NCBI GenBank assembly: GCA_903825245.1
Contig: CAIJZX010000014.1
Span: 1,655 to 65,654 of the forward strand
Direction: 5' to 3'
DNA length: 64,000 nucleotides
DNA from: Candidatus Kerfeldbacteria bacterium
GTDB lineage: Bacteria > Patescibacteriota > Patescibacteriia > SBBC01 > CAIJZX01
Positions 6,680-53,272 of this stretch are shown piece by piece. How positions within the stretch are numbered: the stretch's first letter is position 1; each line of letters begins with the position of its first letter. The translations under genes were made by a program, and so were the position numbers. Below the pieces are notes generated by a model, which saw only the letters and a program-made list of their open reading frames with translations, ran no database searches and was not told the origin of the DNA.

Positions 6680-8480
6680 TCTACAACCCCCGCAGCAGCG
6701 GTGGTTCACGCGTCTCCTCAAACGACGGCAACCGAAGACCGCTTCGGCTACATTAGCGCACAATGATGACCGCGCCTTGGTATTAAGTTTGTCGCCAAAA
6801 CGTATTCCGTCACGAAAGCAGCTTCAGTATTTACCGCGGGTATTAACCACACGAGACCGTAACTGGATTCGTTCCTGCGTCATACTGATTATTGCTAGTA
6901 TCCTGACGCTAATCGGTCACACAATATACAAACACGTGGTTATTATTCCTGCCGATGGCGGAACGCTGAATGAAGGCATCGTCGGTACACCACAGTATAT
7001 CAATCCGGTTCTCGCCCGCCCATATACAGCTGATGCGGAATTAACACATCTCGTGTTTCGTGGATTGATGAAAGTGAATGACCAGCTAGCCGTCGTGCCA
7101 GACTTGGTTTCATCCTTAACGGTCAGCGCTGACGGCAAAGTTTACACCGCCATCCTCCGTTCAAATATGCAATGGTCAGACGGAACAGCGCTTACCGCTG
7201 ACGATGTGCAATATACCTACGAGACCATTGCCGATGCTTCCTACCAAAGTCCATTACTGAGTGTCTTTAAAAATGTAAAAGTCACCACGACCGACAAACA
7301 CACGGTCGTCTTCACGTTACCGGCTCCATTATCATCATTTCCGGCATCATTAACACTTGGCATTTTGCCGAAACAAGATTGGCAGGATCAAAGTGCCCAA
7401 GCCTTTCCCCTCGCCGAACTGAACGTTAAGCCGATTGGTAACGGCCCGTACAAATTCCAAAGCGTCACTAAGGACCGCAATGGCAATATTAAGGCCTATA
7501 CCTTCACACGTAACAAATATTACAACGGTGCAAAACCGCACATTGCCAAAATTACTGTTAAGGTTTATTCCGATGAAGCAAGCGCGGTCGATGCCTTAAA
7601 ATCAGATGCCGTTGATTCACTCGGTGGAATTGATTCAACATCGATAGCGGCAGTAAAAAAGTATCGCCAAATTTCCACCTTCGACCTCTCACAATTAACC
7701 GGCGTCTTCTTTAACCAAAAAACCAGCATCATCCTCAAAGCCGCAGAGGTGCGGCAAGCGTTAGCCATGACCGTCGACCGCGCGGCGCTCATCAAAACCT
7801 CCGACAACAATGTTGGCGCGCCGGCGAACGGGCCGCTTCTCTCGGGTCAACCTGGATTCAGTACGCTGGCGCGACATATCGACCTCAATGTGGCACAAGC
7901 CACAGCGCTTCTCGATCAAAATGGTTGGAAGGTCGGCACCACCGGCATTCGCCAAAAAGGCGGCCGTGATCTCGCGTTTACCTTAACCACCGTCAACGAC
8001 CCAAGTTACGTCGCCATGGCACAGGCGTTGGCCAAGTCGTGGCTCGCTATCGGTGCGAAAGTCGATGTTAAAACGGTCGATGTCGATCGCATCATGAAAG
8101 ACGCAATCCAACCCCGCCAATACGACGCCTTGCTGTACGGCGAACTAACCGACGCCGCGGCCGACATGTATCCGCTGTGGGATTCATCGCAGCAGCAAGA
8201 TCCAGGATTTGCTTTAGCGATCGCGACGCTGAAAAATGCTGATACCGATCTCGAAAAAGCCCGCGCCACCACCGACCCGAATGCCTATGCGGCCGACCTC
8301 CTCGATTTCCAAAATATTTTCGCCGACAGCGTCCCCGCTATTATCATCAGCCAAACGCAATACGTCTACGCCCACGAAAAAAATCTCCGCGGGTTCACCA
8401 CCGATCGGTTGGTAGCGCCGATGAACCGCTTTGACGATATTTCGAGTTGGTACACGAACACCACCTGGAGCTGGAAATAG
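6666..8480 (+). CDS. Extracellular solute-binding protein, family 5 (OppA/DppA-like), membrane-anchored
   Basis: An N-terminal TM anchor (WIRSCVILIIASILTLIG) followed by a ~520-aa domain with the characteristic SBP_bac_5 order (QYINPVLARPYTADAELTHLVFRGLMK...NGPYKFQS...). It overlaps the secG stop by 14 nt. Confidence 0.75.
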   Translation: MPTDNLQPPQQRWFTRLLKRRQPKTASATLAHNDDRALVLSLSPKRIPSRKQLQYLPRVLTTRDRNWIRSCVILIIASILTLIGHTIYKHVVIIPADGGTLNEGIVGTPQYINPVLARPYTADAELTHLVFRGLMKVNDQLAVVPDLVSSLTVSADGKVYTAILRSNMQWSDGTALTADDVQYTYETIADASYQSPLLSVFKNVKVTTTDKHTVVFTLPAPLSSFPASLTLGILPKQDWQDQSAQAFPLAELNVKPIGNGPYKFQSVTKDRNGNIKAYTFTRNKYYNGAKPHIAKITVKVYSDEASAVDALKSDAVDSLGGIDSTSIAAVKKYRQISTFDLSQLTGVFFNQKTSIILKAAEVRQALAMTVDRAALIKTSDNNVGAPANGPLLSGQPGFSTLARHIDLNVAQATALLDQNGWKVGTTGIRQKGGRDLAFTLTTVNDPSYVAMAQALAKSWLAIGAKVDVKTVDVDRIMKDAIQPRQYDALLYGELTDAAADMYPLWDSSQQQDPGFALAIATLKNADTDLEKARATTDPNAYAADLLDFQNIFADSVPAIIISQTQYVYAHEKNLRGFTTDRLVAPMNRFDDISSWYTNTTWSWK

Positions 8481-8530
8481 TTCCATCTTTGTAGTAAGAT
8501 ACGTTTCTCAAATAAATGTGACGAACTGAA

Positions 8531-8573
8531 GGACACGTGGCGCCTGCCTGCCGGCAGGGAATTGGCATACGCA
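8531..8573 (+). repeat. Partial duplicate of the tRNA-Leu 5' end (nt 1-12 and 13-25), split by a 17-nt palindromic insert CCTGCCTGCCGGCAGGG
   Basis: GGACACGTGGCG at 8531-8542 matches tRNA positions 1-12 (8906-8917) with one mismatch. After the insert, AATTGGCATACGC at 8560-8572 is identical to tRNA positions 14-26. The fragment ends 11 nt before the GIY-YIG ATG. Confidence 0.7.
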
Positions 8574-8583
8574 CACAACATCA

Positions 8584-8835
8584 ATGTTCTACGTATACGC
8601 AATAAGTAGCCAGAAAAGAAAATATATCTACGTCGGACTGACCATCGACCTGGTTCGTCGTCTCCACGAGCACAACCATGGTTTTGTACATACAACAAGA
8701 TCGTATGCACCCTTTGACATGCTACTTATTGAAACGCTTCCTAACAGAATTCTTGCCCGACAACGAGAAAAGTTTTGGAAAACTGGGCGTGGGAAGGAAA
8801 TCCTTCGAACCCGAAAAATTCTTAACATCAAATAA
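8584..8835 (+). CDS. Small GIY-YIG nuclease-domain protein (UPF0213/YhbQ-like), 83 aa
   Basis: The N-terminus MFYVYAISSQKRKYIYVGLTIDLVRRLHEHN has the canonical GIY..YIG spacing and the R...E..N motif. The gene lies between the partial tRNA-Leu duplicate and the intact tRNA-Leu. Confidence 0.7.
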   Translation: MFYVYAISSQKRKYIYVGLTIDLVRRLHEHNHGFVHTTRSYAPFDMLLIETLPNRILARQREKFWKTGRGKEILRTRKILNIK

Positions 8836-10084: not shown

Positions 10085-10370
10085 GTATTCCCATGTTACA
10101 GGCTCATGGCTTGACTAAAAGTCCCATTCATGATAGCCTGTCTGCGCTATCAAAACGTCGTGCTCAGCGATTAGCCAAGCGGTTAATCATTGCGCGTGAC
10201 TCCTCGAGTCGGCTCCGGCTGATCGACGAATCCGCATCCGAATCATCCGTTCTAGATTTCTAGAAATCTGATGATCGTTATCACTCATTACGGTTTTCCG
10301 CACGACCAGCAATAGTCGCTCTAGGCGAACCAGAACAACATCGCATCACCTTCGTGATGCACAAACAGCT

Positions 10371-12137
10371 ATGGCTAAACGACCAAAGGCGCGCATGCGC
10401 CGGCCTGACGGACCAAATTATACCCGTCGGCCACAACCGAAACCGAAAGACGGCGAACGCGCTCCCAGCGAGAACGGCAACGTCTTGAAAATTATTCCGC
10501 TCGGCGGCAACGAAGAAACCGGCGGACGAAACTGTTCCGTTATTCAATACGGACGAGAACTCCTGATCGTCGATATGGGCCTCCAATGGCCGGAAGACGA
10601 CATGCCCGGCGTCGATTACATCATTCCTGATGTCAGTTTTTTGCGCGGCAAAGAAAAAGATATCCGCGGCGTGATTATCACCCACGGCCACTACGACCAC
10701 ACCGGCGGCGTCCCGCACATTATTCCGACCCTCGGCAATCCGCCAATCTACGCTTCGGACCTAACCTGCGCGATGCTCCAGAAAAAAATGGAAGACATCG
10801 CGCCGGAAAAGAAATTACGATTGAATAAAGTAAAATCACGCGACCGCATTAAGCTTGGTGCTTTCCGCGTGGAATTCTTTGCGCTCTCGCACAACATTCC
10901 AGGTTCGCTCGGCATCGCCGTCGAAACACCGGCTGGCCGCGTCGTCCACACCGGCGACTTCAAACTCGACTTGCACGCCCACGTCTCGAATCGCACCGAC
11001 ATCGAAACGATCAAACAGATCGGCGACAAAGGCGTCATGTGTTTGATGTGCGACTCGACGAATTCCTACGCGCCAGGACATCAAGTATCCGAAGAAGAAG
11101 TCGAGAAAAACGTTGAACTCATGTTCAGCCAAACAAAAGGCCGCATGATTGTCGCTACCTTTGCTTCGTTACTGTCTCGCGTCCAACAAATTCTCGTGGC
11201 CGCTGAACGACACAATCGCAAAGTCTTGGTTGAAGGCTTCTCCATGAAGACCAACATCGAGATCGGAAAACAACTTGGCTACATTCGTTGTAAACCGAAT
11301 ACTATCATCACCTGGGAAGAAGCACAGAAGATGCCGCCGCACGGGTACCTGATTCTCTGCACCGGCGCACAAGGCGAAGACAACGCCGCCTTGATGCGCA
11401 TCGCCAATCGCGAACATAAATATTTACACATTGAACGTGGCGACCTCGTCGTCTTCTCATCGTCCGTTATTCCGGGCAATGATCGCGCAGTATCACGCCT
11501 CAAGGATGGTCTATTACGCGAAGGCGCCTCGATTATCGACTCGAAAATGCTCGATATTCACGCCGGCGGACATGCGAAGCAGGAAGACATCGCCGATTTG
11601 ATTAAACTCCTGCGACCGAAGTACTTCATGCCAATCGAAGGCAATTATGGCTCGCTCCTCGAGAACAAGCAAATCGCTATCCGCGCCGGCGTACCGGAAA
11701 ATAATAATCTCATCGCCGACAACGGCCAAGTTGTTGAATTCCATTCCGGACAAGGATATGTCACGAGCGTTCGCCATCCGATCGAGTACGTCTTCGTCGA
11801 CGGCCTCGGTATCGGTGACGTTAACGCGCTCGTCTTGCGCGACCGAAAACAACTCGCTGGCGACGGCATGATTGTGGTTATCGCCCAAATTAATACTCGC
11901 GGCGGTAAACCGGGAAAAATCGATGTCATCTCTCGCGGCCTGACGCACATGAAAGAGCAAGGACGATTCATTAGCGGCATGATTGCCGTCGTAAAAAAGT
12001 CCGTGGCCGATAAAGAACCGCGCATGAAACCACAAGAAAAAGATTTGCGCGATAAAATCCGCCGCGACTTGGAAAAGTTTGTCTTCCAGCGCACCCATCG
12101 CCAACCGATGATCGTACCGGTCATCATTGAGGCATAA
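10371..12137 (+). CDS. rnj: Ribonuclease J (metallo-beta-lactamase / beta-CASP)
   Basis: Motif ITHGHYDHTGG, the beta-CASP region and C-terminal domain typical of RNase J, 588 aa. No SD is present. Confidence 0.9.
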   Translation: MAKRPKARMRRPDGPNYTRRPQPKPKDGERAPSENGNVLKIIPLGGNEETGGRNCSVIQYGRELLIVDMGLQWPEDDMPGVDYIIPDVSFLRGKEKDIRGVIITHGHYDHTGGVPHIIPTLGNPPIYASDLTCAMLQKKMEDIAPEKKLRLNKVKSRDRIKLGAFRVEFFALSHNIPGSLGIAVETPAGRVVHTGDFKLDLHAHVSNRTDIETIKQIGDKGVMCLMCDSTNSYAPGHQVSEEEVEKNVELMFSQTKGRMIVATFASLLSRVQQILVAAERHNRKVLVEGFSMKTNIEIGKQLGYIRCKPNTIITWEEAQKMPPHGYLILCTGAQGEDNAALMRIANREHKYLHIERGDLVVFSSSVIPGNDRAVSRLKDGLLREGASIIDSKMLDIHAGGHAKQEDIADLIKLLRPKYFMPIEGNYGSLLENKQIAIRAGVPENNNLIADNGQVVEFHSGQGYVTSVRHPIEYVFVDGLGIGDVNALVLRDRKQLAGDGMIVVIAQINTRGGKPGKIDVISRGLTHMKEQGRFISGMIAVVKKSVADKEPRMKPQEKDLRDKIRRDLEKFVFQRTHRQPMIVPVIIEA

Positions 12138-12183: not shown

Positions 12184-13230
12184 ATGTCACGCATCCTCTC
12201 CGGCATCCGCCCCACCGGCACCCTCCACCTCGGCAATTACCTGGGCGCGATTCAGCAATGGATTGAGCTCCAAACAAAGCACGATGTGTTCTACATGGTG
12301 GCCGATTTACACGCCATTACCACGCCGTACAAACCGGAGGAACTGCAAAACAATATCCGCAACACGGTTTTAGATTACCTGGCGGCGGGACTCGATCCGG
12401 AAAAAGCCACGATCTTTGTTCAGTCGCACGTTCCCGAGCACAGCGAACTCATGTGGTTACTTGGCACGATCACTCCGGTTGGCGAGCTCCAGCGCATGGT
12501 GCAATTCAAAGAGAAGAGTGAACAACACAAGGACTTCAATCAAGCCGGCATTTTGAATTACCCGATTCTGATGGCCGCTGACATCTTGCTCTACAAAGCA
12601 ATGTCGGTGCCGGTTGGTGACGATCAAAACCAGCACGTTGAACTCGCTCGCGACCTAGCCAAGAAATTCAACCGCGAGTATGGCCAAACCTTCCCCGAGC
12701 CGAAAGCAATCCTCACCTCCGGCAAGCGCATTATGGATCTCGCTGATCCGGAACAGAAGATGAGCAAGTCGCTCGGCGGCGGTATTGGTCTCAACGACTC
12801 GCCGGAAGAGATTGCTAAGAAACTAAAGAAAGCGGTGACTAGCTCGGAACCGAAGGTCATTCGCGACGCGATGCATGCGGCGCAAAACAGCCATCGTGCG
12901 ACGATTGATGCTTGGACCGGCGACCCGAATTTATTGAAGCAATTCCACGGCGTCCGTAATTTATTTACCATTCTCTTTGCGGTGGCCGATAGGGATACGG
13001 CGGTCAAATGGCAAACCGCGGCGGAAGACGGCACGCTGAAATTCTCGGAATTCAAACCAGCCCTAGCGAAGGCCATCGCCGATCACTTCGCGCTGTTCCG
13101 CGAACGCCGCGAAGTTTTGGCTAGCGATACTGCCCACCTCGATGAAATTATCGCCGACGGCGCAGTCAAAGCCTCGATTGCCGCCAAACAAACACTCACC
13201 GAAGTTCAACAGAAAATGGGCTTGCGGTAA
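12184..13230 (+). CDS. trpS: Tryptophan--tRNA ligase
   Basis: An N-terminal HIGH-like motif in GIRPTGTLHLGNYLGA and the KMSKS motif, which together define class I TrpRS. Confidence 0.92.
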   Translation: MSRILSGIRPTGTLHLGNYLGAIQQWIELQTKHDVFYMVADLHAITTPYKPEELQNNIRNTVLDYLAAGLDPEKATIFVQSHVPEHSELMWLLGTITPVGELQRMVQFKEKSEQHKDFNQAGILNYPILMAADILLYKAMSVPVGDDQNQHVELARDLAKKFNREYGQTFPEPKAILTSGKRIMDLADPEQKMSKSLGGGIGLNDSPEEIAKKLKKAVTSSEPKVIRDAMHAAQNSHRATIDAWTGDPNLLKQFHGVRNLFTILFAVADRDTAVKWQTAAEDGTLKFSEFKPALAKAIADHFALFRERREVLASDTAHLDEIIADGAVKASIAAKQTLTEVQQKMGLR

Positions 13231-14012: not shown

Positions 14013-14852
14013 ATGGACAGCGAAACGGTTCGGGAATATTCCTCCTCAACCCTCGGTGACAAACAAGTAACCGTCCGTTATTGGACATACGGAAATCCGC
14101 AAGCACCGGCTATGGTTTTGCTCCACGGATTTCGTGGTAACCACCGCGGGTTAATTCTGCTCGCTCAACTTCTCCCCCAATATCACGTCATCATTCCCGA
14201 TTTACCGGGCTGGGGCAAATCCGACCCGCTGACTGTACGTCACGATTTTTCCAATTATAGTATCTGGCTACAAGAATTTATTTCCACCGTTGCCGGCGAC
14301 AACGTTGTACTTGCCGGCCATTCGTATGGCGCGGTTATGGCTATGCTCTACGCCACAAAACATAACGACGATCTTCAACAGCTCGTGCTGATTGAACCGG
14401 TACTTGGCGACCGGACAATATCAAATCGGCTCGGCCAGCTGTATTACCAAATTGCTGATCGCCTACCACGGCCGGTACAAAATTTTTGGATCAAGAATTC
14501 GGCGTTAAACCGCCTCACCACCGAAATCATGACCGTCACGAAAAATCGCGACATCAAACGCCGGATCGTCACCGATGAACAAGCAAACGTTCCACAGATT
14601 CGTGTCGCCGTTGAACTCGAAGCATTTCATTCTTTTTACGAAACAACGTTGGACGATGTGGCTCAGGCTATTCATATGCCGACACTCGTGATTGCTGGTG
14701 ACCGCGACCAAATGACACCGCTCAGTGCTACACGAAGATTCACCGAAAAACTTCCGCACGGCCGTCTTATTGTCCTTCCAGGCGCCGGGCATTTTGCGCC
14801 TATGGAAATACCGTCGGCTATCGCCCGCGCTATTGAGACGTCGTCAACCTAG
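14013..14852 (+). CDS. Alpha/beta-fold hydrolase
   Basis: Nucleophile elbow GHSYG, an upstream HGFRGN oxyanion-hole region, and Asp/His positions consistent with a catalytic triad near the C-terminus. Confidence 0.75.
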   Translation: MDSETVREYSSSTLGDKQVTVRYWTYGNPQAPAMVLLHGFRGNHRGLILLAQLLPQYHVIIPDLPGWGKSDPLTVRHDFSNYSIWLQEFISTVAGDNVVLAGHSYGAVMAMLYATKHNDDLQQLVLIEPVLGDRTISNRLGQLYYQIADRLPRPVQNFWIKNSALNRLTTEIMTVTKNRDIKRRIVTDEQANVPQIRVAVELEAFHSFYETTLDDVAQAIHMPTLVIAGDRDQMTPLSATRRFTEKLPHGRLIVLPGAGHFAPMEIPSAIARAIETSST

Positions 14853-31475: not shown

Positions 31476-32567
31476 TTATTCCGCCTTCTCTTCCGCCGGT
31501 TCGTCAGCAACCGCCGCCGGTTTTGTTCCAGCATCATCTTCCGCTTGGCGGTCTTTCGCTACTTCAAGAACCTTCTTCCGAAGCTCATCGATAATTTTTG
31601 GATTATCTTGCAAATATTGCTTCGAGGCTTCGCGGCCAACGCCGAATTTAATTTCACCGTAGGAAACGGTGTTACCGGATTTCGTCAGCACACCGTAGAG
31701 CAACGCCGTGTCGAGTACATCGGATACCAGTGAAATCCCTTGGTTGTACATGATGTCGAACTCAGCTACGCGGAACGGAGCGGCGACTTTGTTCTTCACA
31801 ATTTTCGCCTTGGTGCGGTTGCCGATAATCTTATCACCGAGTTTCAACTGACCAATGCGGCGAACTTCGATACGAACCGAGCAGTAGAATTTCAAGGCTG
31901 TCCCACCAGTCGTCGTTTCCGGATTACCGAAGAAGACGCCGATCTTCATGCGCGTCTGGTTGATGAAGATAACGATGGTTTTCGTCTTTGACACGATGGC
32001 CGTGAGCTTACGCAATGCTTGCGACATCAATCGCGCTTGCAAGCCCATATGTGAATCGCCCATCTCACCTTCAATTTCCGCTTTTGGCGTTAAGGCCGCG
32101 ACCGAGTCAATGACGACGACGTCAACCGCATTCGAGCGCACCAGTGTTTCCACGATTTCTAACGCTTGTTCACCTGAGTCCGGTTGTGAGATTAAGAGTT
32201 CATCAACATTCACGCCAATCTTTCGCGCGTAGCTTGGATCAAGAGCGTGTTCGGCATCAACGAAGGCGGCGGTTCCGCCGGCGCGCTGTACTTCCGCCAC
32301 AATGTGTTGTGCCAACGTGGTTTTTCCCGACGCTTCCGGTCCGAAGATTTCAATCACCCGACCGCGCGGCACGCCGCCCACGCCGAGCGCTAAATCTAAC
32401 GACAAACATCCCGTGGAGACGACATCGACGTCCATCGCCCGGGCTTCACTAAATTTCATAATCGATCCTTCACCGAAACGCTCTCGGATCTGATCGACCG
32501 CCGTTTGCGCGGCCGCATTTTTTATCTTACCGGCGTCAGCACCGGCGCTTTTTTGGCTCTTGGCCAT
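31476..32567 (-). CDS. recA: Recombinase A
   Basis: Walker [14 protein letters not shown], RecA loops L1 and L2, and an acidic C-terminus. 363 aa. Confidence 0.93.
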
Positions 32568-32707
32568 ATGGTTATTCCTTTCTTACCGCACGTCTTCCCA
32601 CAAATCGGGGACAGTCGGGGTTTAATGAATTAATGATACCCGAAGAATAACCGAATGTCAACAAAAGATATCCACAAGCTTTTTATGTCGTAATAATGCG
32701 GTATTTC

Positions 32708-32803
32708 GGCCCTCTCCTTGGATAAGGGGAGGTGAAGGAGGGGTCACAAAACCACCATTTTTTCACCACCTCCCCTTCACCCCTCCTCGGCTGAGGAGGG
32801 GGC
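32708..32803. repeat. Extended (~95-bp) composite GA-rich palindrome of the same family as 5646-5680 and 27294-27335
   Basis: GGCCCTCTCC..AAGGGGAGGTGAAGGAGGGGTCAC-AAAACCACCATTTTTT-CACCACCTCCCCTTCACCCCTCCTC-GGCT-GAGGAGGGGGCC. It contains the hairpin CCCCTCCTC/GAGGAGGGG and lies immediately upstream of the island promoter. Confidence 0.65.
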
Positions 32804-32814
32804 CGGATTGGGTC

Positions 32815-32843
32815 TTGACAAAATCCCCTACTTGTCCTATACT
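32815..32843 (+). promoter_or_regulatory. Consensus promoter TTGACA-N17-TATACT at the head of the small-gene island
   Basis: Hexamers at 32815-32820 and 32838-32843. It is the only consensus-quality + strand promoter found between here and the terminator at 37727-37750. Confidence 0.5.
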
Positions 32844-32907
32844 GTCCAGTTCTTTAAATCCATAAATTACTTCTACTTCGCCCACGTGAGCAGACGCGGC
32901 GCGAACG

Positions 32908-32965
32908 ACGGGTGCGTTGTCTTGATTACTCTGCTCATGTAGTCACTACGACGCACCCGTTTTTC
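32908..32965 (+). promoter_or_regulatory. Attenuator-like leader hairpin (ACGGGTGCG ...35-nt loop... CGCACCCGT followed by TTTTT), with a possible competing pairing TGAGCAGA/TCTGCTCA
   Basis: A 9-bp stem plus T5, lying between the promoter and the first island ORF. TGAGCAGA at 32887-32894 can pair with TCTGCTCA at 32930-32937, which sits inside the terminator loop. Confidence 0.4.
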
Positions 32966-32995
32966 GTTCAGACTTCATTTACCATAGGAGGATGT

Positions 32996-33205
32996 GTGAC
33001 TGCCCTAGAACGTGACACACGTGTGTCCATCATCATCGGAATCGCTGCCCTCTGTAGCATTACCTTGGTGGTTGGCGGAACTATGGCCAAATGTATCGGT
33101 ATGGCCACCAAGTGCGCAGGCGTGGTGATTGGTGGCGGCATCATCGCTGCCGTTTGTGTCGCCGCCTGGGGCTTGTACAGGTCTTATCAGACCACACGAA
33201 AGTAG
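32996..33205 (+). CDS. Island ORF A: small two-TM, Gly-rich membrane peptide (GTG start, 69 aa; longest ORF from 32912)
   Basis: AGGAGG 4 nt before the GTG. Product ...IIIGIAALCSITLVVGGTMAKCIGMATKCAGVVIGGGIIAAVCVAAWGLYRSYQTTRK, with glycine-zipper-like GxxxG motifs. Confidence 0.45.
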   Translation: MTALERDTRVSIIIGIAALCSITLVVGGTMAKCIGMATKCAGVVIGGGIIAAVCVAAWGLYRSYQTTRK

Positions 33206-33364
33206 CTCGTACCATCTACACAGATGTAAAACGTGAGGGAGGGAGAACAGCCACGTTTTCCTCCCACTCTCACATGAATTGATCACTACTGGTCACATCA
33301 TGCGAGAGGTCTGTACCTTGACTCTCAATAAAGAAAATACTGCGTTCCCGTTTTTCGTTCAACG
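33203..33364. repeat. Type-1 inter-ORF unit, copy 1 (~160 bp), starting at the ORF A stop codon
   Basis: TAGCTCGTACCATC...GTGAGGGAGGGAG..CCTCCCACTCTCAC-ATGAATTGATCACTACTGGTCACATCATGCGAGAGGTCTGTACCTTGACTCTCAATAAAGAAAATACTGCGTTCCCGTTTTTCGTTCAACG. The last ~100 nt are identical to copy 3. Confidence 0.75.
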
Positions 33365-33386
33365 TACTTCAACAAAGGGACACCCA

Positions 33387-33557
33387 ATGCTTCGTTCATT
33401 GGCACTGCTGGCTTGGATATGTCTCGCGTCATTAATCCATGACTGCGAAAGATACGTCTGGCGCTGCAAGGTGAAGAGACTTCGGAAGACACTCAATGGT
33501 CGAAATCATGAGTTGGATGTCTTCTTGAAGAATCTCGAGGAATACTACGCGATGTAG
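33387..33557 (+). CDS. Island ORF B: 56-aa protein with a hydrophobic N-terminus (MLRSLALLAWICLASLIHDCERYVWRCKVKRLRK...)
   Basis: The ATG is preceded by AAAGGGA. The longest ORF (33279) begins inside the repeat, and copy 2 of that repeat carries an in-frame stop, so the upstream part is not coding. Confidence 0.45.
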   Translation: MLRSLALLAWICLASLIHDCERYVWRCKVKRLRKTLNGRNHELDVFLKNLEEYYAM

Positions 33558-33714
33558 TTCGTACCGTCGCCACACGACGTAAACAAGTGAGGGAGGGAGA
33601 ACAGCCACGTTTTCCTCCCACTCTCACATGATTTGGTCACCGTTGGTCACATCATGCGAGAGGTCTGTACCTTGACTCTCAATGAAGAAAATAGCACTCC
33701 CGTTTTTCGTTCAA
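33555..33714. repeat. Type-1 inter-ORF unit, copy 2 (a diverged copy)
   Basis: It starts at the ORF B stop (TAGTTCGTACCGTC...) and shows ~85 % identity to copy 1, including the GTGAGGGAGGGAG hairpin and the CCCGTTTTTCGTTCAACG tail. Confidence 0.75.
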
Positions 33715-33748
33715 CGCTGTGAACCCATACAGCCCTTGGAGGATCATC

Positions 33749-33949
33749 ATGGTTCCTCATCCGCTCAAGCTCAAGCGTGATGAACAGTACCTGCAGAGCA
33801 GTATTGCTCTTCTGATCACGGTTGTCCCCATCGTCGTCATCGTGAGGTATGGCTGGCATGGTTATGCCGTATTATACCTGATCGCCCTCATCATCTTCGC
33901 GATCTACAAGTTCGTCAGGGGCATGATGATCAAGGTCCCGAAGAGCTAG
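33749..33949 (+). CDS. Island ORF C: 66-aa two-TM membrane peptide
   Basis: GGAGGA 5 nt before the ATG. MVPHPLKLKRDEQYLQSSIALLITVVPIVVIVRYGWHGYAVLYLIALIIFAIYKFVRGMMIKVPKS. Confidence 0.5.
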   Translation: MVPHPLKLKRDEQYLQSSIALLITVVPIVVIVRYGWHGYAVLYLIALIIFAIYKFVRGMMIKVPKS

Positions 33950-34120
33950 CCCGCACCATCGCCTCGCGATGAAATTTGTGAGGGAGGATTGAGGAGGGTT
34001 TACCTTTTCTCTTCTCCCTCACCCCTCACATGAATTGATCACTACTGGTCACATCATGCGAGAGGTCTGTACCTTGACTCTCAATAAAGAAAATACTGCG
34101 TTCCCGTTTTTCGTTCCACG
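33947..34120. repeat. Type-1 inter-ORF unit, copy 3
   Basis: It starts at the ORF C stop (TAGCCCGCACCATC...). Its 5' hairpin is the variant GTGAGGGAGGATTGAGGAGGG..CTCCCTCAC, and its 3' ~100 nt are identical to copy 1. Confidence 0.75.
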
Positions 34121-34137
34121 CCAATTCGGAGGTCATC

Positions 34138-34308
34138 ATGAGGATGGGCACGTTCAGCACGATCGAGCGAATTATGGAGGACAACGGACTACCGGTTCCA
34201 AGCGGGCGAGGAAATGAGAAGCTCAACGAAATCGCAAGAATCGTCGAGACTCACGAAATGCCTGAGGATGTCCGACAGCGTCTTCGTAACTTGCTCGCCC
34301 TTCGCTGA
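34138..34308 (+). CDS. Island ORF D: 56-aa hydrophilic protein (MRMGTFSTIERIMEDNGLPVPSGRGNEKLNEIARIVETHEMPEDVRQRLRNLLALR)
   Basis: GGAGG 5 nt before the ATG. It is absent from the ORF track only because it is under 60 aa. It ends just before a shortened leader (CAAGTTTTCGTTCAC). Confidence 0.4.
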   Translation: MRMGTFSTIERIMEDNGLPVPSGRGNEKLNEIARIVETHEMPEDVRQRLRNLLALR

Positions 34309-34366
34309 CTCAACGACAAGCAACGCACAAGTTTTCGTTCACACTTCTCGCTACGGAGGTTACACC

Positions 34367-34615
34367 ATGTCGTCCAATCCGATGACGTCGGAGCAGAAGG
34401 TTACGCAACTCCTGGTAGCGCTCGTGTTGACCATTCTTGGTCTGCCGATCGCCGCGCTTGGTGGTTACGGCATCTACTTTGCCTTCACCAATACCGGTGC
34501 CGATCCCGGCCTCGGATCAGCGGCCATTCTGGTCTTCTGCGTCGGCATCGGCGCTATCGGCATCGCCATCAAGCTGACCAACGATGCGCGTCGGGCGAAG
34601 ACGAGTCCGATCTAG
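34367..34615 (+). CDS. Island ORF E: 82-aa two-TM, Gly-rich membrane peptide
   Basis: GGAGG 7 nt before the ATG. MSSNPMTSEQKVTQLLVALVLTILGLPIAALGGYGIYFAFTNTGADPGLGSAAILVFCVGIGAIGIAIKLTNDARRAKTSPI. Confidence 0.5.
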   Translation: MSSNPMTSEQKVTQLLVALVLTILGLPIAALGGYGIYFAFTNTGADPGLGSAAILVFCVGIGAIGIAIKLTNDARRAKTSPI

Positions 34616-34649
34616 ATGCACCTTGAGATAAGGGGGACCCGCGAGTTCC

Positions 34650-34704
34650 CTTCTCACTCGACTTGAGAACTAATCCAATAGTTGTCCGGTCAAGTGAGAA
34701 AACC
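34650..34704 (+). repeat. Type-2 leader hairpin, copy 1 (TCTCACTCGAC ...loop... GTCAAGTGAGAAAACC)
   Basis: The stem CACTCGAC/GTCAAGTG contains one G-U pair and is followed by GAGAAAA. The motif family recurs upstream of ORFs at 35251, 36142 and 36738. Confidence 0.65.
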
Positions 34705-34745
34705 AAAGTAACATCGTTCCGTCACAATCAAATCTGGAGGATACA

Positions 34746-35105
34746 ATGACCAATCTGGCTTTGGCTGTCACTGTTATTGGCGCCGCCGCTGTCATCGTGG
34801 TTGTCTGGCGCTTCATGCGTCACAAGTTCCGCAACGACGAGATCGCTGTTCCGGACGAACCCACGCCGCCGCAACCGGTCTATAACGATAGGCCCGTGAT
34901 CGAGGCTGAAGAAATCGGTCACGGCGTTTACGAGATCGGGTTCTACGGACGCTTCGATGGGGTCCTGATGGACGTCTTTCCGGAATCCCTCGCCGCCTTC
35001 GTCAAGCAGCACCCCGAGTTGCGGATCATCAGCGTCTGCACCGGACGTGAATCCAGTTACAATGGCTTCACTTCCAGTATGGTTGTGTTGACCGAACTGC
35101 GTTAA
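34746..35105 (+). CDS. Island ORF F: 119-aa protein with an N-terminal TM anchor and a small soluble domain
   Basis: GGAGGA 4 nt before the ATG. MTNLALAVTVIGAAAVIVVVWRFMRHKF... followed by a ~85-aa domain. Confidence 0.55.
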   Translation: MTNLALAVTVIGAAAVIVVVWRFMRHKFRNDEIAVPDEPTPPQPVYNDRPVIEAEEIGHGVYEIGFYGRFDGVLMDVFPESLAAFVKQHPELRIISVCTGRESSYNGFTSSMVVLTELR

Positions 35106-35165
35106 GCACCTTCAACTCGAGCCACCCGGCTCATTGAGAGGATGGATAGCCACATCGTCCTCCTT

Positions 35166-35208
35166 TCACTCGAGTATTGCAAGCAATTGAAATATTCAAG
35201 CGAAACAC
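35166..35208 (+). repeat. Type-2 leader hairpin, copy 2 (a diverged copy: TCACTCGAG...TTCAAGCGAAACAC)
   Basis: It shares TCACTCGAG and the CAAG(T/C)GA(G/A)AAAC tail. A further partial CAACTCGAG...CTCATTGAG lies at 35111-35140. Confidence 0.5.
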
Positions 35209-35250
35209 AGAAAATAGAAACTGCTCTTCACAACACTAGGAGGTTCAAGG

Positions 35251-35484
35251 ATGGACATTCCTGCGTTTCACAGCGTTACGGCTCACAAAGAACATGAATG
35301 TTGTGAATGCCACGAGCGGATTCTTCCGAAGGAGAGGTGCTGGATTCAGTACTGGCCGGATGCTCGTCAGCGTCGGTGGAAGAATGTTTTTACCTGCTCT
35401 CACTGTCGTCCGCAACACGAAGTACCGGCACAGCCTACGCCGGCACCTCAGCCGATCAAGTCTCAGCAGTTGTTGCTTCTGTAG
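35251..35484 (+). CDS. Island ORF G: Cys-rich 77-aa protein (HECCECHERILPKERCW...CSHCRPQH), a zinc-ribbon-like product
   Basis: TAGGAGG 7 nt before the ATG. Two CxxC-like clusters lie about 30 residues apart, followed by a Pro/Gln-rich tail. Confidence 0.55.
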   Translation: MDIPAFHSVTAHKEHECCECHERILPKERCWIQYWPDARQRRWKNVFTCSHCRPQHEVPAQPTPAPQPIKSQQLLLL

Positions 35485-35508
35485 CCCACCTCAACAAGGA
35501 GCTCCAAA

Positions 35509-35967
35509 ATGGAATTCGTCGGGAAGAAGTTCGTGTTGTGGCCATACATGCCGGACATGCCCAGCGTGCAGTATCGCGACCAGCATGGCATTCTCCATTG
35601 GGGTCGACGCATCGAGAGAGAAATCGTCGTCACAATCGAAAATGAATCGACAAATGCGTCAGGACACGGCACCGACCTCGTCGCTCGTGACAAGGACGGC
35701 ATGCTGTATCAGTCGACCTGGGACGAGAGCAATTCCCGTCCCTACCGCGTCTGGTGGTACGTCGAGGGCGGCCGTGTGATCCTGCTCACGAATGCGATCA
35801 ATCTCTACAACGAACGTCCGACCGCATTCATCCGTCCCGATGGCACCCGCGCTGTCCCGGCAATCGCCACGGTCTGCGCCAAACATGACGAGGTATGCTT
35901 GTCGAATGGCGAATGCCCCATGTGCATGATGGAGAAGCATCGCGCCAAGCTGCAAGGTTCCGTCTAG
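35509..35967 (+). CDS. Island ORF H: hypothetical 152-aa protein with a C-terminal Cys cluster (CAKHDEVCLSNGECPMC)
   Basis: AAGGAG 7 nt before the ATG. It lies 24 nt after ORF G and is probably co-transcribed with it. The competing ORFs at 35294..35779 and 35307..35645 lack an RBS. Confidence 0.55.
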   Translation: MEFVGKKFVLWPYMPDMPSVQYRDQHGILHWGRRIEREIVVTIENESTNASGHGTDLVARDKDGMLYQSTWDESNSRPYRVWWYVEGGRVILLTNAINLYNERPTAFIRPDGTRAVPAIATVCAKHDEVCLSNGECPMCMMEKHRAKLQGSV

Positions 35968-36037
35968 ACCTCCTAGCTGTTCTCGCCTGCCGCGCAATTC
36001 TACGTTCACTTCGGTGGATATGGATTGCGCGGCGGGC

Positions 36038-36084
36038 TCTCACTCGAGCGTTTCACAACCGTGGAACGTTCAAGTGAGAAAACG
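36038..36084 (+). repeat. Type-2 leader hairpin, copy 3 (CTCTCACTCGAGCGTT...AACGTTCAAGTGAGAAAACG)
   Basis: A 14-nt stem with one mismatch and one G-U pair, followed by GTCACAAT as in copy 1. Confidence 0.65.
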
Positions 36085-36141
36085 AAAAGAAATACTGTTC
36101 TGTCACAATTCATCGCTTTACGCGAAGAGAGGAGCAGCATA

Positions 36142-36570
36142 ATGAGTTTGCTTGCGGCTTGTTTGTTGATCGCGGCCGTAGTGTTCCTGGTGGTAGCCAT
36201 TTTTCAGGATCGGGCGCGGTTTCGTGAGTTGGAAAAAAGGAGGAATCTGGAGCGGTGCGAATCACGGCACGCGCAAAACTTCCTCGAGCTGGAGATCAAG
36301 ATCCTCCGATATGTTCATGGCCACAAGCGCCTGCCCAAGAACATGGACCTTGTGCGCGGCATGAATATGAACCCGGATTATACCAACCCCTTCAGCGGAA
36401 ATCCGGCCAATGTCAATGACGTGACCGGGCTGGAGGAGATGCGAATCATCCTGCCCCATGATCTGACGTTCGAGATCTTGGCTCCGGAAGGTCCCGGATC
36501 GGAACGATGTGTCATCGCCCTGAATGATGCAAACGGCCAAGTGATGTGTCGGAGGACCATTTACGCGTAA
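36142..36570 (+). CDS. Island ORF: 142-aa protein with an N-terminal signal/anchor (MSLLAACLLIAAVVFLVVAIF) and a soluble domain
   Basis: GAGGAG 8 nt before the ATG. The longest ORF (36025) would begin inside the leader hairpin. Confidence 0.5.
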   Translation: MSLLAACLLIAAVVFLVVAIFQDRARFRELEKRRNLERCESRHAQNFLELEIKILRYVHGHKRLPKNMDLVRGMNMNPDYTNPFSGNPANVNDVTGLEEMRIILPHDLTFEILAPEGPGSERCVIALNDANGQVMCRRTIYA

Positions 36571-36636
36571 ACCGAGATCACAACCAACTGGTTTTCGAGA
36601 GATTTTCCCTGGCTCACGCCAAAAATAATCTCTCAG

Positions 36637-36697
36637 TTTCACTCGAGCGTTTCAGCGCCGCCTGCTCGCGGAACTGGAGCGCTCAAGTGAGAAAAGA
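36637..36697 (+). repeat. Type-2 leader hairpin, copy 4 (TTTCACTCGAGCG ...33-nt loop... CGCTCAAGTGAGAAAAG)
   Basis: The stem CACTCGAGCG/CGCTCAAGTG has one G-U pair, and the GAGAAAA tail is the same as in the other copies. Confidence 0.65.
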
Positions 36698-36737
36698 AAA
36701 TTGTAAAAACCGTTCATTCCAACTGAAGGAGAGTGCT

Positions 36738-37421
36738 ATGTCCACTTGTGCGCAGGAGGAATTCCTAGCCACACACGTCACATGTCGACCATATCGAGTG
36801 TCTGATCGGCGGGAAATTCGTCAGCTGATGTGTAATACCGCAATTATGGGCAATCCGATCGACCTGCAATGCACCGATCGCGAGCTCATTGCCGATTTGT
36901 TCACCCGGTACTACACCGACGTCACGCCGGGATGGATCTGGGTGCTCGAATTTCGCGGACGCCTCGTCGGTTACCTGATGGGTTGTCCGGACACGAAGCT
37001 GTTCCAGAAGTATATGGACGACGTCTACCCCAGTATCCTGCTCGGCGTCCTGCGTCGCGGATCGCTCTTCCGTTCCGGTTCAGCCGGCTTTCTGTGGCGG
37101 ACAATCGGAGACATTCTCGGAAAGGTACTTCGTCGCGAACCGCTCGAGTATTACAATCCGGCGTTTCCGGCTCACGCTCACCTGAATGTTTTGCCCGAAG
37201 GTCGTTCATCTACGTACCAGCTCGCTGCCCGATTTCTGAAGCAGCTCAGACAGCATAATGTGCCTGGGATCATGGTTGAAATCTGGGCCGAGAATGCCCA
37301 CATGGCCACCCTGCTGGAACACCATCGTTTTCAGAAGGTCCATTCCACCACCATGCCCGGCATGCGTCAGTCGAACGGTTATCCGTACCATGTCGCCACC
37401 TACGTCCGATCGCTGTTGTAG
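36738..37421 (+). CDS. Island ORF: GNAT-family N-acetyltransferase-like protein (227 aa)
   Basis: AAGGAG 7 nt before the ATG. A GNAT-like central and C-terminal region (GRLVGYLMG...NVLPEGRSSTYQLAARFLKQLRQHNVPGIMVEIWAENAHMATLLEHHRFQKV). The assignment is by motif resemblance only. Confidence 0.45.
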   Translation: MSTCAQEEFLATHVTCRPYRVSDRREIRQLMCNTAIMGNPIDLQCTDRELIADLFTRYYTDVTPGWIWVLEFRGRLVGYLMGCPDTKLFQKYMDDVYPSILLGVLRRGSLFRSGSAGFLWRTIGDILGKVLRREPLEYYNPAFPAHAHLNVLPEGRSSTYQLAARFLKQLRQHNVPGIMVEIWAENAHMATLLEHHRFQKVHSTTMPGMRQSNGYPYHVATYVRSLL

Positions 37422-37448
37422 CCTCACCCCTCACACAAGGAGCCGCAC

Positions 37449-37730
37449 GTGATCCAGTGGATGCTGTTGCTGGTAATTCTGGCTATGTTCTTCTCGCTCA
37501 TCAACAGCCGCGACAAAGGGTTGGACCAGATCATTTCCGGCTGGGTCATCTGGACTGGCTGGCTGTGGATTCTCATTCCCGGCGCCATGTTCGGCAACGA
37601 GATTCTCCGTTCGATCGGTGCACCGAATATCCGGATCTTCCAGTCCGGGTCGTGGCAGCCGCTCGGTCCGATGGTTCTCGGCGCGATCCTGCTCTTTTCC
37701 TGGCATCGCCGCCAGGCCAAACACAACTAA
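37449..37730 (+). CDS. Island ORF: 93-aa multi-TM membrane protein (GTG start)
   Basis: AAGGAG 6 nt before the GTG. Three hydrophobic helices (MIQWMLLLVILAMFFSLI..., WVIWTGWLWILIPGAMF, LGPMVLGAILLFSW). It is followed immediately by a strong terminator. Confidence 0.55.
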   Translation: MIQWMLLLVILAMFFSLINSRDKGLDQIISGWVIWTGWLWILIPGAMFGNEILRSIGAPNIRIFQSGSWQPLGPMVLGAILLFSWHRRQAKHN

Positions 37731-37750
37731 CCTTCGGGTTAGTTTTTTTT
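37727..37750 (+). terminator. Rho-independent terminator CTAACC-TTCG-GGTTAG followed by T8 at the end of the island; it overlaps the stop of the convergent RodZ-like gene
   Basis: A 6-bp stem with a TTCG tetraloop and eight T residues on the + strand. Confidence 0.6.
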
Positions 37751-38411
37751 ATTCCACGAGCACTTGCCGTATCACAACTCGAGCTGAACTGTGTTTCTTT
37801 ATTGCAGAAATTTTCAATGTATTAAGTCCGGTGTGTAGGTCAATCGTCAAAGTAAATGAACCAGCTGTCGTTTGCACTGCTTCGTCGTTTATTGTAACGG
37901 TCGCATTAGGGTCGGTTTTTCCGGTAATAGTCATTGTTGTTTGCTTCGTAGCAATATCGCGACTTGGTTGTGTGATGAGCAATTGTGGTGGAAGAAAGTT
38001 TTGTATTACTTGCAAGCCGATATAGGCGAACACCGCAACCAGTATTATTCCAGCCGCAATAAAACGAATGTATTTCCGTCCCCAAGAAAAATCGGTATTC
38101 GCACGAGGTGTGAGTAGTGGCCGTGAGGCTGGTCCAGTTTTTGTGACCACGGCATATTCTTGCTCAAAAATGCCGATCGCCATCGCCACATCGGTTTCTA
38201 ATAATTCAGCATAACGACGAACGAATTGTTTGGCATATACCTGGCCAGGCAAATCACGATACCGCGAGGATTCAATCGCCACTAAATACTTCGGCGAGAT
38301 GTGTAATCGCGAAGCAACATCCTCAATCGTCAATCGGCTTTCGTTTCGAAGTGTTTGGAGGCGATCACCGAGCGTCGCCCCATCAACTAGCGGCCGCTTC
38401 GAGAAGGTCAT
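37749..38411 (-). CDS. RodZ-like XRE-family helix-turn-helix membrane protein
   Basis: An N-terminal HTH (LGDRLQTLRNESRLTIEDVASRLHISPKYLVAIE), a single TM helix (IRFIAAGIILVAVFAYIGL) and a C-terminal beta-rich domain. It overlaps the ftsK stop by 4 nt. Confidence 0.7.
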   Translation of the reverse strand: MTFSKRPLVDGATLGDRLQTLRNESRLTIEDVASRLHISPKYLVAIESSRYRDLPGQVYAKQFVRRYAELLETDVAMAIGIFEQEYAVVTKTGPASRPLLTPRANTDFSWGRKYIRFIAAGIILVAVFAYIGLQVIQNFLPPQLLITQPSRDIATKQTTMTITGKTDPNATVTINDEAVQTTAGSFTLTIDLHTGLNTLKISAIKKHSSARVVIRQVLVE

Positions 38412-52991: not shown

Positions 52992-53272
52992 GAAAATACC
53001 CCCATCCTCTCTCGGGCAAGAGAGGGGTTAATGTTGTTGAGATCTCGCCCCGCACCAGAGGCGTGTAGCGCTCAAAGGCGCTGAATATATGCTCAAAATA
53101 TAACTCAAAATACGCTTGATGAGGATACCAACATTTGACGTCTCTGTCAAGGATATTTGGGTTTTTCTGTCAAGTGCCTATTTTTTGGCTAACCTTAGCC
53201 ACGAAAACGTCTTTTCCCTAATCTTAGCCAAAAAATATCCCCATACTCTTCCCGAAGTTATCCACAGTTCAC

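Follow-up and report, generated by a model that had tools for sequence, protein, structure and literature searches.

A covarying stem-loop family in the leaders of a variable orphan-gene island between recA and rodZ, with a possible role in mRNA punctuation

What are the imperfect hairpins that recur between the small genes of the recA-rodZ locus, and what might they do for the genes that follow them? The locus lies in a 64,000-nucleotide (nt) stretch of contig CAIJZX010000014.1 (hereafter the window), in which an island of 5 kb (~32800-37750) separates recA (31476-32567, minus strand) from a rodZ-like HTH_25/Glucodextran_B gene, followed by ftsK. The original prediction, read from the letters of this stretch, had placed four such hairpins, the Type-2 (T2) leaders, in the 5' untranslated regions (UTRs) of island open reading frames (ORFs) and had proposed selection on their RNA structure. 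We identify T2 as a real, evolutionarily conserved, covarying stem-loop family. As for its function, it may well be a cis-acting mRNA element, although we hold this view tentatively: together with a second hairpin (hpX) just upstream, T2 would punctuate a polycistronic transcript, serving as a 5' stem-loop for processing or 5'-end protection.

All four predicted hairpins are present, upstream of the ORFs starting at 34746, 35251, 36142 and 36738, in the intergenic spacers of the array; three are strong and one (c2) is decayed. All lie on the plus strand, and their scores are given here for a covariance model (R1) built from 15 copies after a fuzzy search. Copy c1 (34652-34699) belongs to a 45-nt subtype, TCTCACTCGAC...GTCAAGTGAGA (-23.5 kcal/mol, z -5.9; 50.5 bits), and its distal stem and loop are near-identical to those of a copy in the related locus L038 (14005-14049). 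The decayed c2 (35164-35205) has the 3' arm TTCAAGCGAAA (-10.8 kcal/mol, z -1.3; 52.8 bits). Copy c3 (36038-36079) is of a short subtype with the loop AACC (-26.6 kcal/mol, z -5.9; 55.7 bits), and c4 (36637-36692) is of a 53-nt subtype, also found in the relatives L042 and L043, with the apical loop CUGCUC (-35.1 kcal/mol, z -4.9; 76.2 bits). For the RNA folds of c1, c3 and c4, none of 200 shuffles was equally stable. The stem in the window has the base (T/C)(T/C)TCACT/AGTGAGA, above which a C faces an A and GAG.../...CTC follows; beyond this the distal stem and loop vary between copies in both sequence and length. The 13-mer TCAAGTGAGAAAA occurs exactly three times in the 64 kb, each time within a T2 site, where about 0.002 exact matches would be expected by our own arithmetic from length alone. 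From the 3' end of the hairpin to the start codon there are 46 nt for c1, 45 for c2, 62 for c3 and 45 for c4. A tail GAGAAAA had been said always to follow the 3' arm. This is true of three of the four window copies, whereas c2 has GCGAAAC; moreover, the GAGA is part of the stem, and the exact heptamer follows only 1 of the 18 copies in other genomes, several of which have A-rich variants. The octamer GTCACAAT was correctly noted in two copies (34721-34728 and 36102-36109).

Following the flanking rodZ-like protein into metagenome assemblies led us to relatives with the same gene neighborhood, and R1 gave 22 strong T2 copies in seven genomes: four in the window, one in L015, three in L038, five in L042, five in L043, three in L046 and one in L047. 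All 22 are on the ORF-sense strand, in an intergenic spacer and inside a recA-rodZ island; antisense matches to R1 are the same sites at far lower score. The model found no T2 in the island-less relatives L036, L040/L041 and L045, in the flanks of the other relatives, or in the rest of the window (~59 kb), save for a 17.5-bit mini-hairpin at 53000-53036. The earlier notion of an element specific to this island is thus correct for the window itself, but six other genomes have the family in their homologous island. The recA-rodZ gap is a hotspot of variable gene content: it is empty (~150-400 bp) in L036, L040/L041 and L045 and filled with small orphan-ORF arrays in L015, L038/L039, L042, L043/L044, L046 and L047. 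Only four ORF families are common to any two of the five islands compared, too few and too diverged for mapping cassette breakpoints, and the DNA similarity between islands is largely limited to the promoter and leader, the hairpins and a few shared ORFs. Recent duplication of a single leader, which would have deprived the original prediction of its basis, does not account for the copies, since the ORFs downstream are unrelated and T2 recurs in other genomes. A RodZ homologue with 65% identity carries in NCBI the name of a Patescibacteria metagenome-assembled genome, and related contigs come from groundwater metagenomes; judging from these matches, the T2-bearing lineage probably belongs to the Patescibacteria (candidate phyla radiation). 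Contigs of the same strain were 100% identical over the aligned stretches and supplied no single-nucleotide polymorphisms. Among 185,579 species genomes, a set that lacks the source genome, a pattern of the exact arms gave 10 matches, in Ruminococcaceae and Bacteroidales and none of them related; nine have one fixed gap, and the matches look like conserved coding sequence. A shorter pattern gave 18 single matches in IMG/VR and no comparable multi-copy hairpin.

Selection on the stem-loop, as had been proposed, is borne out by the alignment of the 22 copies. RNAalifold on the MAFFT alignment arrived unaided at the same helix, with 17 pairs, 13 of them showing compensatory double changes. When the structure was specified, 90.7% of the helix cells were paired, compared to 32-46% with the partners slid, and 14 of the 18 pairs changed on both sides. 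The covariation score was 0.464, against 0.162 after shuffling (0/500 reached 0.464) and 0.05-0.14 with the partners slid by 1-3 columns. Columns 11-77, for instance, hold A-U in 11 copies and U-A in 5, and columns 21-67 hold U-A in 11 and A-U in 8. The compensatory change quoted at the outset (GAC/GTC against GAG/CTC) is real: it corresponds to columns 17-71, with C-G in 8 copies, G-C in 6 and G-U in 6. Five positions at the mismatch, on the other hand, (almost) never vary: C-G, U-A, the C·A opposition, G-C and A-U. The C·A within this CUCGA/UCAAG core is retained in 21 of 22 copies and lies 7-8 bp from the base of a hairpin that spans 40-72 nt, with 16-27 pairs and a distal stem of variable length. 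A core that stays fixed while the scaffold around it covaries suggests that CUCGA/UCAAG is recognized specifically. The apical loops are conserved by subtype, CUGCUC in the 53-nt and AAUYCAAU in the 45-nt form. The CUGCUC loop is conserved in c4 (36655-36674), in three L043 copies and in one L042 copy (L042_d), and the same hexamer stands in the island leader at 32886-32891.

T2 is one module of a longer, ordered spacer: a GC-rich hpX, then T2, then a single-stranded tail (often A-rich, with CGTTCTGTCACAA in one subset), then the Shine-Dalgarno sequence. The hpX hairpin sits 0-2 nt 5' of every T2 copy except that of L047; its sequence is variable and it has no U-tract. Before c1 (34631-34651) it is predicted to fold as GGGGGAC-ccgcga-GTTCCC, and in its L046 orthologues the loop is kept as CCGCGA or CCGCGC and the stems covary (GCCAAC/GTTGGC, GGAATC/GATTCC). 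Before c2 (35138-35162) it reads GAGGATGGATAGCCACATCGTCCTC, and this type, GAGAGGA(T/C)GGATAGCCACATCGTCCTCC, is found in five copies in three genomes with an invariant loop (window 35135-35174; L043, minus strand, 14446-14462, 12272-12288 and 11941-11957; L042, minus strand, 10247-10263). Over 35135-35174, which takes in hpX and the T2 5' arm, the window is identical to two of the L043 sites at 40 of 40 nt; the single ORF common to the window and L043 has 54% identity as protein and 72% as DNA. Before c3 (35985-36037), hpX is a GC-rich inverted repeat without a T-run (-37.7 kcal/mol), and before c4 (36597-36634) it is GAGAGATT...AATCTCTC, with a homologous hairpin in L043.

The tails follow a similar logic. 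After c1 (34700-34745) there is an A-rich run, AACATCGTTCCGTCACAAT, which includes the octamer mentioned above, and the Shine-Dalgarno GGAGG; this tail is kept in L043 and L046 ahead of other ORFs. The tail after c3 (36080-36141) has an A-rich run, TGTCACAAT (36102-36109), a small hairpin CGCTTTACGCG and a Shine-Dalgarno sequence, and is kept in the L043_e and L042_d copies ahead of ORFs that are unrelated (BLASTP E = 1.9 and 41). The tail after c4 (36693-36737) carries the Shine-Dalgarno AGGAG. Tails are often A-rich, and some of them, in the window, L043, L046 and in part L042, have AAAC..AACATCGTTCTGTCACAA in common. Three tails of this subset add the small CGCTTTACGCG hairpin before the Shine-Dalgarno sequence, and all three precede unrelated ORFs. 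Homologous tails and T2 arms ahead of unrelated ORFs across genomes imply that the leader is maintained for its own sake, and it is thus a portable set whose modules are conserved whichever gene lies downstream. We also considered translational coupling, through pairing of the segment after a stop codon with the next Shine-Dalgarno sequence, and rejected it: such pairing is seen in a few spacers only, with a mean probability of 0.21 against 0.19 in shuffled sequence.

How is this array expressed? Its eleven ORFs (32993-37730, plus strand; 56-227 aa) all have a Shine-Dalgarno sequence. A promoter matching 11 of 12 consensus positions (TTGACA-17-TATACT, 32815-32843, plus strand) is the sole near-consensus plus-strand promoter in 32500-38000, and it is conserved at the head of the relatives' islands whose start is covered. 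It is followed by a structured leader (32850-32964) that ends in an intrinsic terminator, found by folding, with its stem at 32908-32959 and its T-run (T5) at 32960-32964. The island closes with an intrinsic terminator at 37725-37752, an 8-bp stem and then TTTTTTTT (T8), which is the clear one among the eight terminator-like sites of a plus-strand scan of 32500-38000 (4.9 expected from shuffles). That scan placed no terminator at T2 or hpX; the internal hairpins lack a T-run, and what comes after T2 is an A-rich or mixed tail. Likewise, promoter-like matches in the island are at chance level (four, against 4.1 in shuffles): no consistent -35/-10 pair follows T2, and the only match at an internal hairpin is a weak 9/12 site overlapping c2 (35187-35215), at the rate expected by chance. 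The simplest reading of these scans is that the array would be transcribed in sense as one long RNA with structured intercistronic spacers. Two of the roles suggested for T2 at the outset are not consistent with this layout. An attenuator would be expected to end in a U-tract, which T2 lacks, whereas the true terminators, one in the island leader and one closing the island, carry T-runs; and a thermometer does not fit a hairpin that ends 36-144 nt before the start codon, with the Shine-Dalgarno sequence outside it.

Our preferred, tentative reading is therefore one of processing and protection, which would work as follows. T2 would be transcribed in sense as part of a long mRNA covering the variable orphan-gene array from recA to rodZ. 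Cleavage could then occur at or near the 0-2-nt junction between hpX and T2, or in the A-rich tail, so that the upstream segment would end in hpX as its 3' cap and the downstream one would begin with T2 as a 5'-terminal stem-loop. There T2 might shield its segment from 5'-end-dependent decay, of the kind that an RNase J (encoded in the same window at 10371-12137) could carry out, so that each orphan cistron would be insulated from its neighbors. The CUCGA/UCAAG core with its C·A would be the likely recognition point for an RNase or an RNA-binding factor. What we observe is the hairpin with its covariation, its restriction to the sense strand and to the islands, the lack of promoters and U-tracts next to it in the window, and its place at the predicted 5' end in L047; processing, mRNA stabilization and a dedicated reader of T2 are what we infer.

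The arrangement in L047 is the most direct evidence for a role in RNA. The island promoter of this relative (TTGACA-17-TATAGT) has its last -10 base only 10-13 nt upstream of the base of T2, with neither island leader nor hpX present, and from this spacing T2 would be transcribed and start ~1-5 nt from the predicted 5' end. The strand on which the element folds is informative as well. Not counting the conserved C·A, G·U pairs outnumber A·C mismatches 46 to 9 on the sense strand, an excess that favors a folded sense strand; as evidence for folded sense RNA this is suggestive. Several points nonetheless speak against the processing and protection reading. The two strands fold with about the same energy (mean -25.7 kcal/mol sense, -24.3 kcal/mol antisense; sense better in 8 of 18), and folding energy consequently leaves the choice of strand undecided. 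In addition, read on the antisense strand, both the C·A of the core and the A·C seen in GCGAG variants become G·U. The identity of 40/40 nt over hpX and the T2 5' arm is more sequence conservation than a passive hairpin requires, and the modules on either side of T2 are put together differently in different genomes, which a role in DNA recombination would explain equally well. A general decay signal would also be expected outside the island, yet T2 is confined to it. Finally, the single-transcript model comes from consensus scans of the window only, and processing and stabilization are proposals.

A rival reading starts from the hotspot itself. T2 and hpX could serve as substrates for a DNA recombination by which orphan-gene cassettes at the recA-rodZ locus are shuffled, acting either as a folded single-strand site for a recombinase, similar to the attC sites of integrons, or as a homology patch for RecA exchange; a role in RNA could coexist. 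We regard this as rather unlikely, but it would account for a hotspot that is empty in three relatives and holds different orphan ORFs in seven genomes, for the paucity of shared ORF families, for inter-island similarity that is largely confined to promoter/leader, hairpins and few ORFs, and for the joining of varied hpX/T2 5'-arm modules to varied T2 3'-arm/tail modules. The copy directly after the array promoter in L047 would fit as well. Like attC arrays, the island consists of promoterless, same-strand, mostly orphan ORFs behind one upstream promoter, separated by imperfect palindromes of variable length (40-72 nt) with a conserved basal stem and a conserved unpaired feature. The attC core consensus is RYYYAAC ... 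GTTRRRY, and the T2 basal stem YYTCAC/GTGARR differs at one complementary position from that consensus. In the wider form YYTCWCT ... AGWGARR, however, the T2 base has neither GTTRRRY nor RYYYAAC, and it lacks the extrahelical bases of attC. Moreover, T2 is embedded in a long, structured spacer and goes together with the leader downstream of it, and spacers of 130-260 nt hold far more conserved structure than a cassette junction requires. No Phage_integrase, transposase or other recombinase family was found by the Pfam scan among 33 long ORFs of the window (six ORFs of at least 150 aa outside the island were unscanned), nor do the gene lists of the relatives' islands show a recombinase. The G·U excess of the sense strand is unexpected for a duplex homology patch, but it could fit a single-stranded site on the top strand. 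For the homology patch, the parallel is the promoter early stem-loops (PeSLs) of T4-like phages, defined as a terminator-like stem-loop with a sigma-70-type early promoter similar to TTGACA-N17-TATAAT (PMC4122927), which have been proposed to serve both gene expression and recombinational shuffling (PMC2839356, PMC4122927). Both are conserved intergenic modules with a stem-loop, placed beside unrelated orphan ORFs in hyperplastic regions and more conserved than the genes; the internal T2 leaders, in contrast, come without such a promoter, and T2 hairpins are much longer and have covarying stems. Going one step further, the recA-rodZ locus would be a new integron-like cassette platform without an integron integrase, in which captured and swapped orphan genes are served by one promoter, and hpX and T2 are junctions of a new type, read as folded single strands by a recombinase or used by RecA, that double as mRNA punctuation. 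We consider this combined scheme improbable.

The remaining explanations concern what might read T2, or whether anything does. T2 could be an RNA operator, by which a trans-acting protein or the island leader RNA co-regulates translation or decay of all cassette mRNAs. The core with its C·A, invariant in 21/22 copies, and the restriction of T2 to the island do point to a dedicated reader, whether RNase, RNA-binding protein or RNA, and the apical loops CUGCUC and AAUYCAAU are conserved within subtypes. In the leader helix GAGCAG/CUGCUC, the 3' strand has the same six letters as the CUGCUC loop, and so the GAGCAG of the leader could pair with the T2 loop. But this match is just a hexamer, met after many comparisons, L047 carries T2 without the leader, and no protein is common to all islands, for which reasons we think an operator of this kind unlikely. 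It is very unlikely that T2 is a selfish or neutral palindromic repeat spreading locally without host function, in the manner of repetitive extragenic palindromes (REPs) or miniature inverted-repeat transposable elements. T2 is, admittedly, a short, imperfect, multi-copy intergenic palindrome that is highly similar between genomes, and with REPs and the bacterial interspersed mosaic elements built from them it may share the ability to stabilize upstream mRNA; REPs, though, are found genome-wide in both orientations with a GTAG-type head, whereas all 22 T2 copies have one orientation at one locus, with none in the ~59 kb of window flank or in the relatives' flanks. The stem has been maintained by compensatory changes across genome divergence, T2 has a fixed place within a larger ordered leader, and the 33 scanned ORFs include no transposase. 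Lastly, the arms form an inverted repeat, as would a duplex-DNA operator or an element of an internal promoter serving each gene downstream, the protein operator having been among the original suggestions. In support of a promoter one could cite TGTCACAAT in the c3 tail, which resembles the extended -10 TGnTATAAT at four of six hexamer positions, and the weak match in c2. However, a T at -7 is present in only two of the five homologous tails that carry the motif, which is why we rejected it as an extended -10, and promoter-like matches do not exceed the shuffled expectation, nor is there a promoter next to the internal copies. A span of 40-72 nt, hence a variable spacing of the arms, is ill-suited to a dimeric DNA binder, and covariation of the stem is unexpected for a protein operator. 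Of all the explanations, this one strikes us as barely plausible.

Returning to T2 as possible mRNA punctuation, there are several precedents. 5'-terminal stem-loops are established mRNA stabilizers (Emory, Bouvet and Belasco 1992), among them the 5' stem-loop on papA that arises from processing of papBA (Bricker and Belasco 1999), both cited in the review PMC3997798. T2 has in common with these stabilizers (Escherichia coli ompA, papA, and Bacillus subtilis aprE and SP82) a stable hairpin near the 5' end of a cistron and apart from the Shine-Dalgarno sequence. It also lies between cistrons in a genome that encodes an RNase J-type 5' exonuclease, and in L047 it is ~1-5 nt from the predicted start. 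The known cases, in contrast, are single-gene elements without shared sequence, and T2 is multi-copy, with an invariant mismatch core, at one variable locus. By prediction the L047 hairpin is 5'-terminal, and the internal copies would become so through the proposed cleavage between hpX and T2. The RNase III hairpins of the phage T7 early region (R0.3 to R1.3) are likewise a repeated family of ~50 nt with an internal non-Watson-Crick interruption, located between the cistrons of one transcript. A strong promoter precedes both arrays, and in T7 the processing products are left with protective hairpins. Where T2 has a single C·A and a variable distal stem, a T7 site has two helices of ~10 bp separated by a larger, asymmetric internal loop; T7 is also a phage, whereas the setting of T2 is chromosomal (no PHROG matches). 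As a duplex, T2 has the dimensions of an RNase III site (~20 bp or more with an internal loop, intercistronic), with 16-27 pairs, the C·A and an intercistronic or 5'-UTR position; no rnc gene was identified in the window. In Rfam 15, only two tRNAs of the window reach the gathering score, and even with a loose cutoff (E up to 5) over 32600-37800, T2, hpX and the leader RNA remain free of matches. The permissive matches there are miRNA-like and antisense-RNA ones on the palindrome and promoter region (32647-32829), plus one weak small-RNA match. The kind of element to which T2 belongs, an intercistronic or 5'-UTR mRNA stem-loop, is already known; the family, its C·A core, the pairing with hpX and the link to a cassette-like hotspot are new.

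If punctuation is indeed its role, T2 is a new family of structured RNA motifs outside Rfam, with unusually clean covariation and a conserved C·A, and as a portable leader it would let a small-genome, probably episymbiotic bacterium express fast-turnover orphan genes from a single promoter. If, instead, the recombination reading is true, the locus holds a new kind of cassette-capture system. The family is a handle on the organization and expression of variable islands in candidate-phyla bacteria; the covariance model is ready for locating such islands, and the spacers offer a natural design for a cistron insulator.

T2 also turned out to be less separate from its neighbors than the original division into two leader families would suggest. 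The Type-1 repeats of the island, 112 nt each (33228-33339, 33582-33693 and 33984-34095), contain two hairpins, the first hpX-like and the second T2-like. With filters off, R1 picks up the second hairpin of every repeat on the plus strand: 33262-33318 (CTCTCACATGA...TCATGCGAGAG; 17.6 bits, E = 0.001), 33616-33672 (17.5 bits, E = 0.0011) and 34018-34074 (12.1 bits, E = 0.031), the hairpins themselves being placed at 33267-33308, 33621-33662 and 34021-34066. Type-1 and Type-2 leaders hence carry related hairpins, the Type-1 member being a diverged one of the same family. In these repeats the T2-like hairpin is followed by GTCTGTAC, as is a canonical T2 in L042 (7797-7849), and the 3' ends of the repeats (CCCGTTTTTCGTTCA) duplicate the 3' half of the island-leader terminator. 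The mini-hairpin within 53000-53036, CCTCTCTCGGGCAAGAGAGG (53006-53027; E = 0.036), is directly upstream of the rpoB start, and it shares its basal stem with those T2 variants that have CTCTCT/AGAGAG.

The head of the island is conserved in its own right, at 32815-32964 in the window, ~9110-9260 in L015 and, on the minus strand, ~15255-15460 in L038, ~10560-10750 in L042, ~16260-16440 in L043 and ~10785-11000 in L046. Its order is a sigma-70 promoter, the near-invariant TTCGCCCACGTGAGCAGACGCGGCGCGAA, the helix GAGCAG/CTGCTC and the intrinsic terminator. The terminator stem covaries in L015, and L038 and L046 have an additional inserted hairpin. With no match in Rfam, the leader of the island head is a candidate riboswitch, attenuator or small RNA for the whole array.

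The eleven island ORFs are mutually unrelated by pairwise comparison and have no Pfam, PHROG or PADLOC family above threshold, and for the 119-aa ORF a large protein search returned only itself. The 227-aa ORF (36738-37421) is distantly GNAT-like through one homologue only, with 35% identity to an Acetyltransf_1 protein; its orthologue in L015 (9681-10340) is apparently frameshifted or shortened, with 163 aa. The 33 scanned ORFs of the window are housekeeping (rpoB, rpoC, uvrC, RNase J, trpS-like and others) or unannotated. Near the right edge of the island, two metagenome contigs, L002 (1824-1941) and L003 (1826-1906), match the window without a difference as far as 37661, beyond which both run on into MreB-like coding sequence; the junction is probably an assembly chimera and not a real rearrangement.

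Between the divergent recA and island promoters lies a palindrome of ~100 nt (32706-32806), rich in GGAGGGG/CCCCTCC, to which Rfam gives generic miRNA-precursor-like matches only. Similar hairpins, CACCCCTCC...GGAGGGGTG, occupy its position in L015, L036, L042 and L047. L015 has an extra ORF between the two promoters (8460-8822, minus strand), whose product, by inspection of its sequence alone, resembles a DUF559/Vsr-like endonuclease domain, and in L042 an ORF is called at the same position (11150-11404, minus strand; no Pfam match on record). The recA 5' UTR itself contains CCCCGACTGTCCCCGATTTGTGGGAAGACG (32575-32625, minus strand), between promoter and start codon. It recurs with few changes in L015, L036, L042, L043 and L047, and could be a LexA-type operator or a UTR structure.

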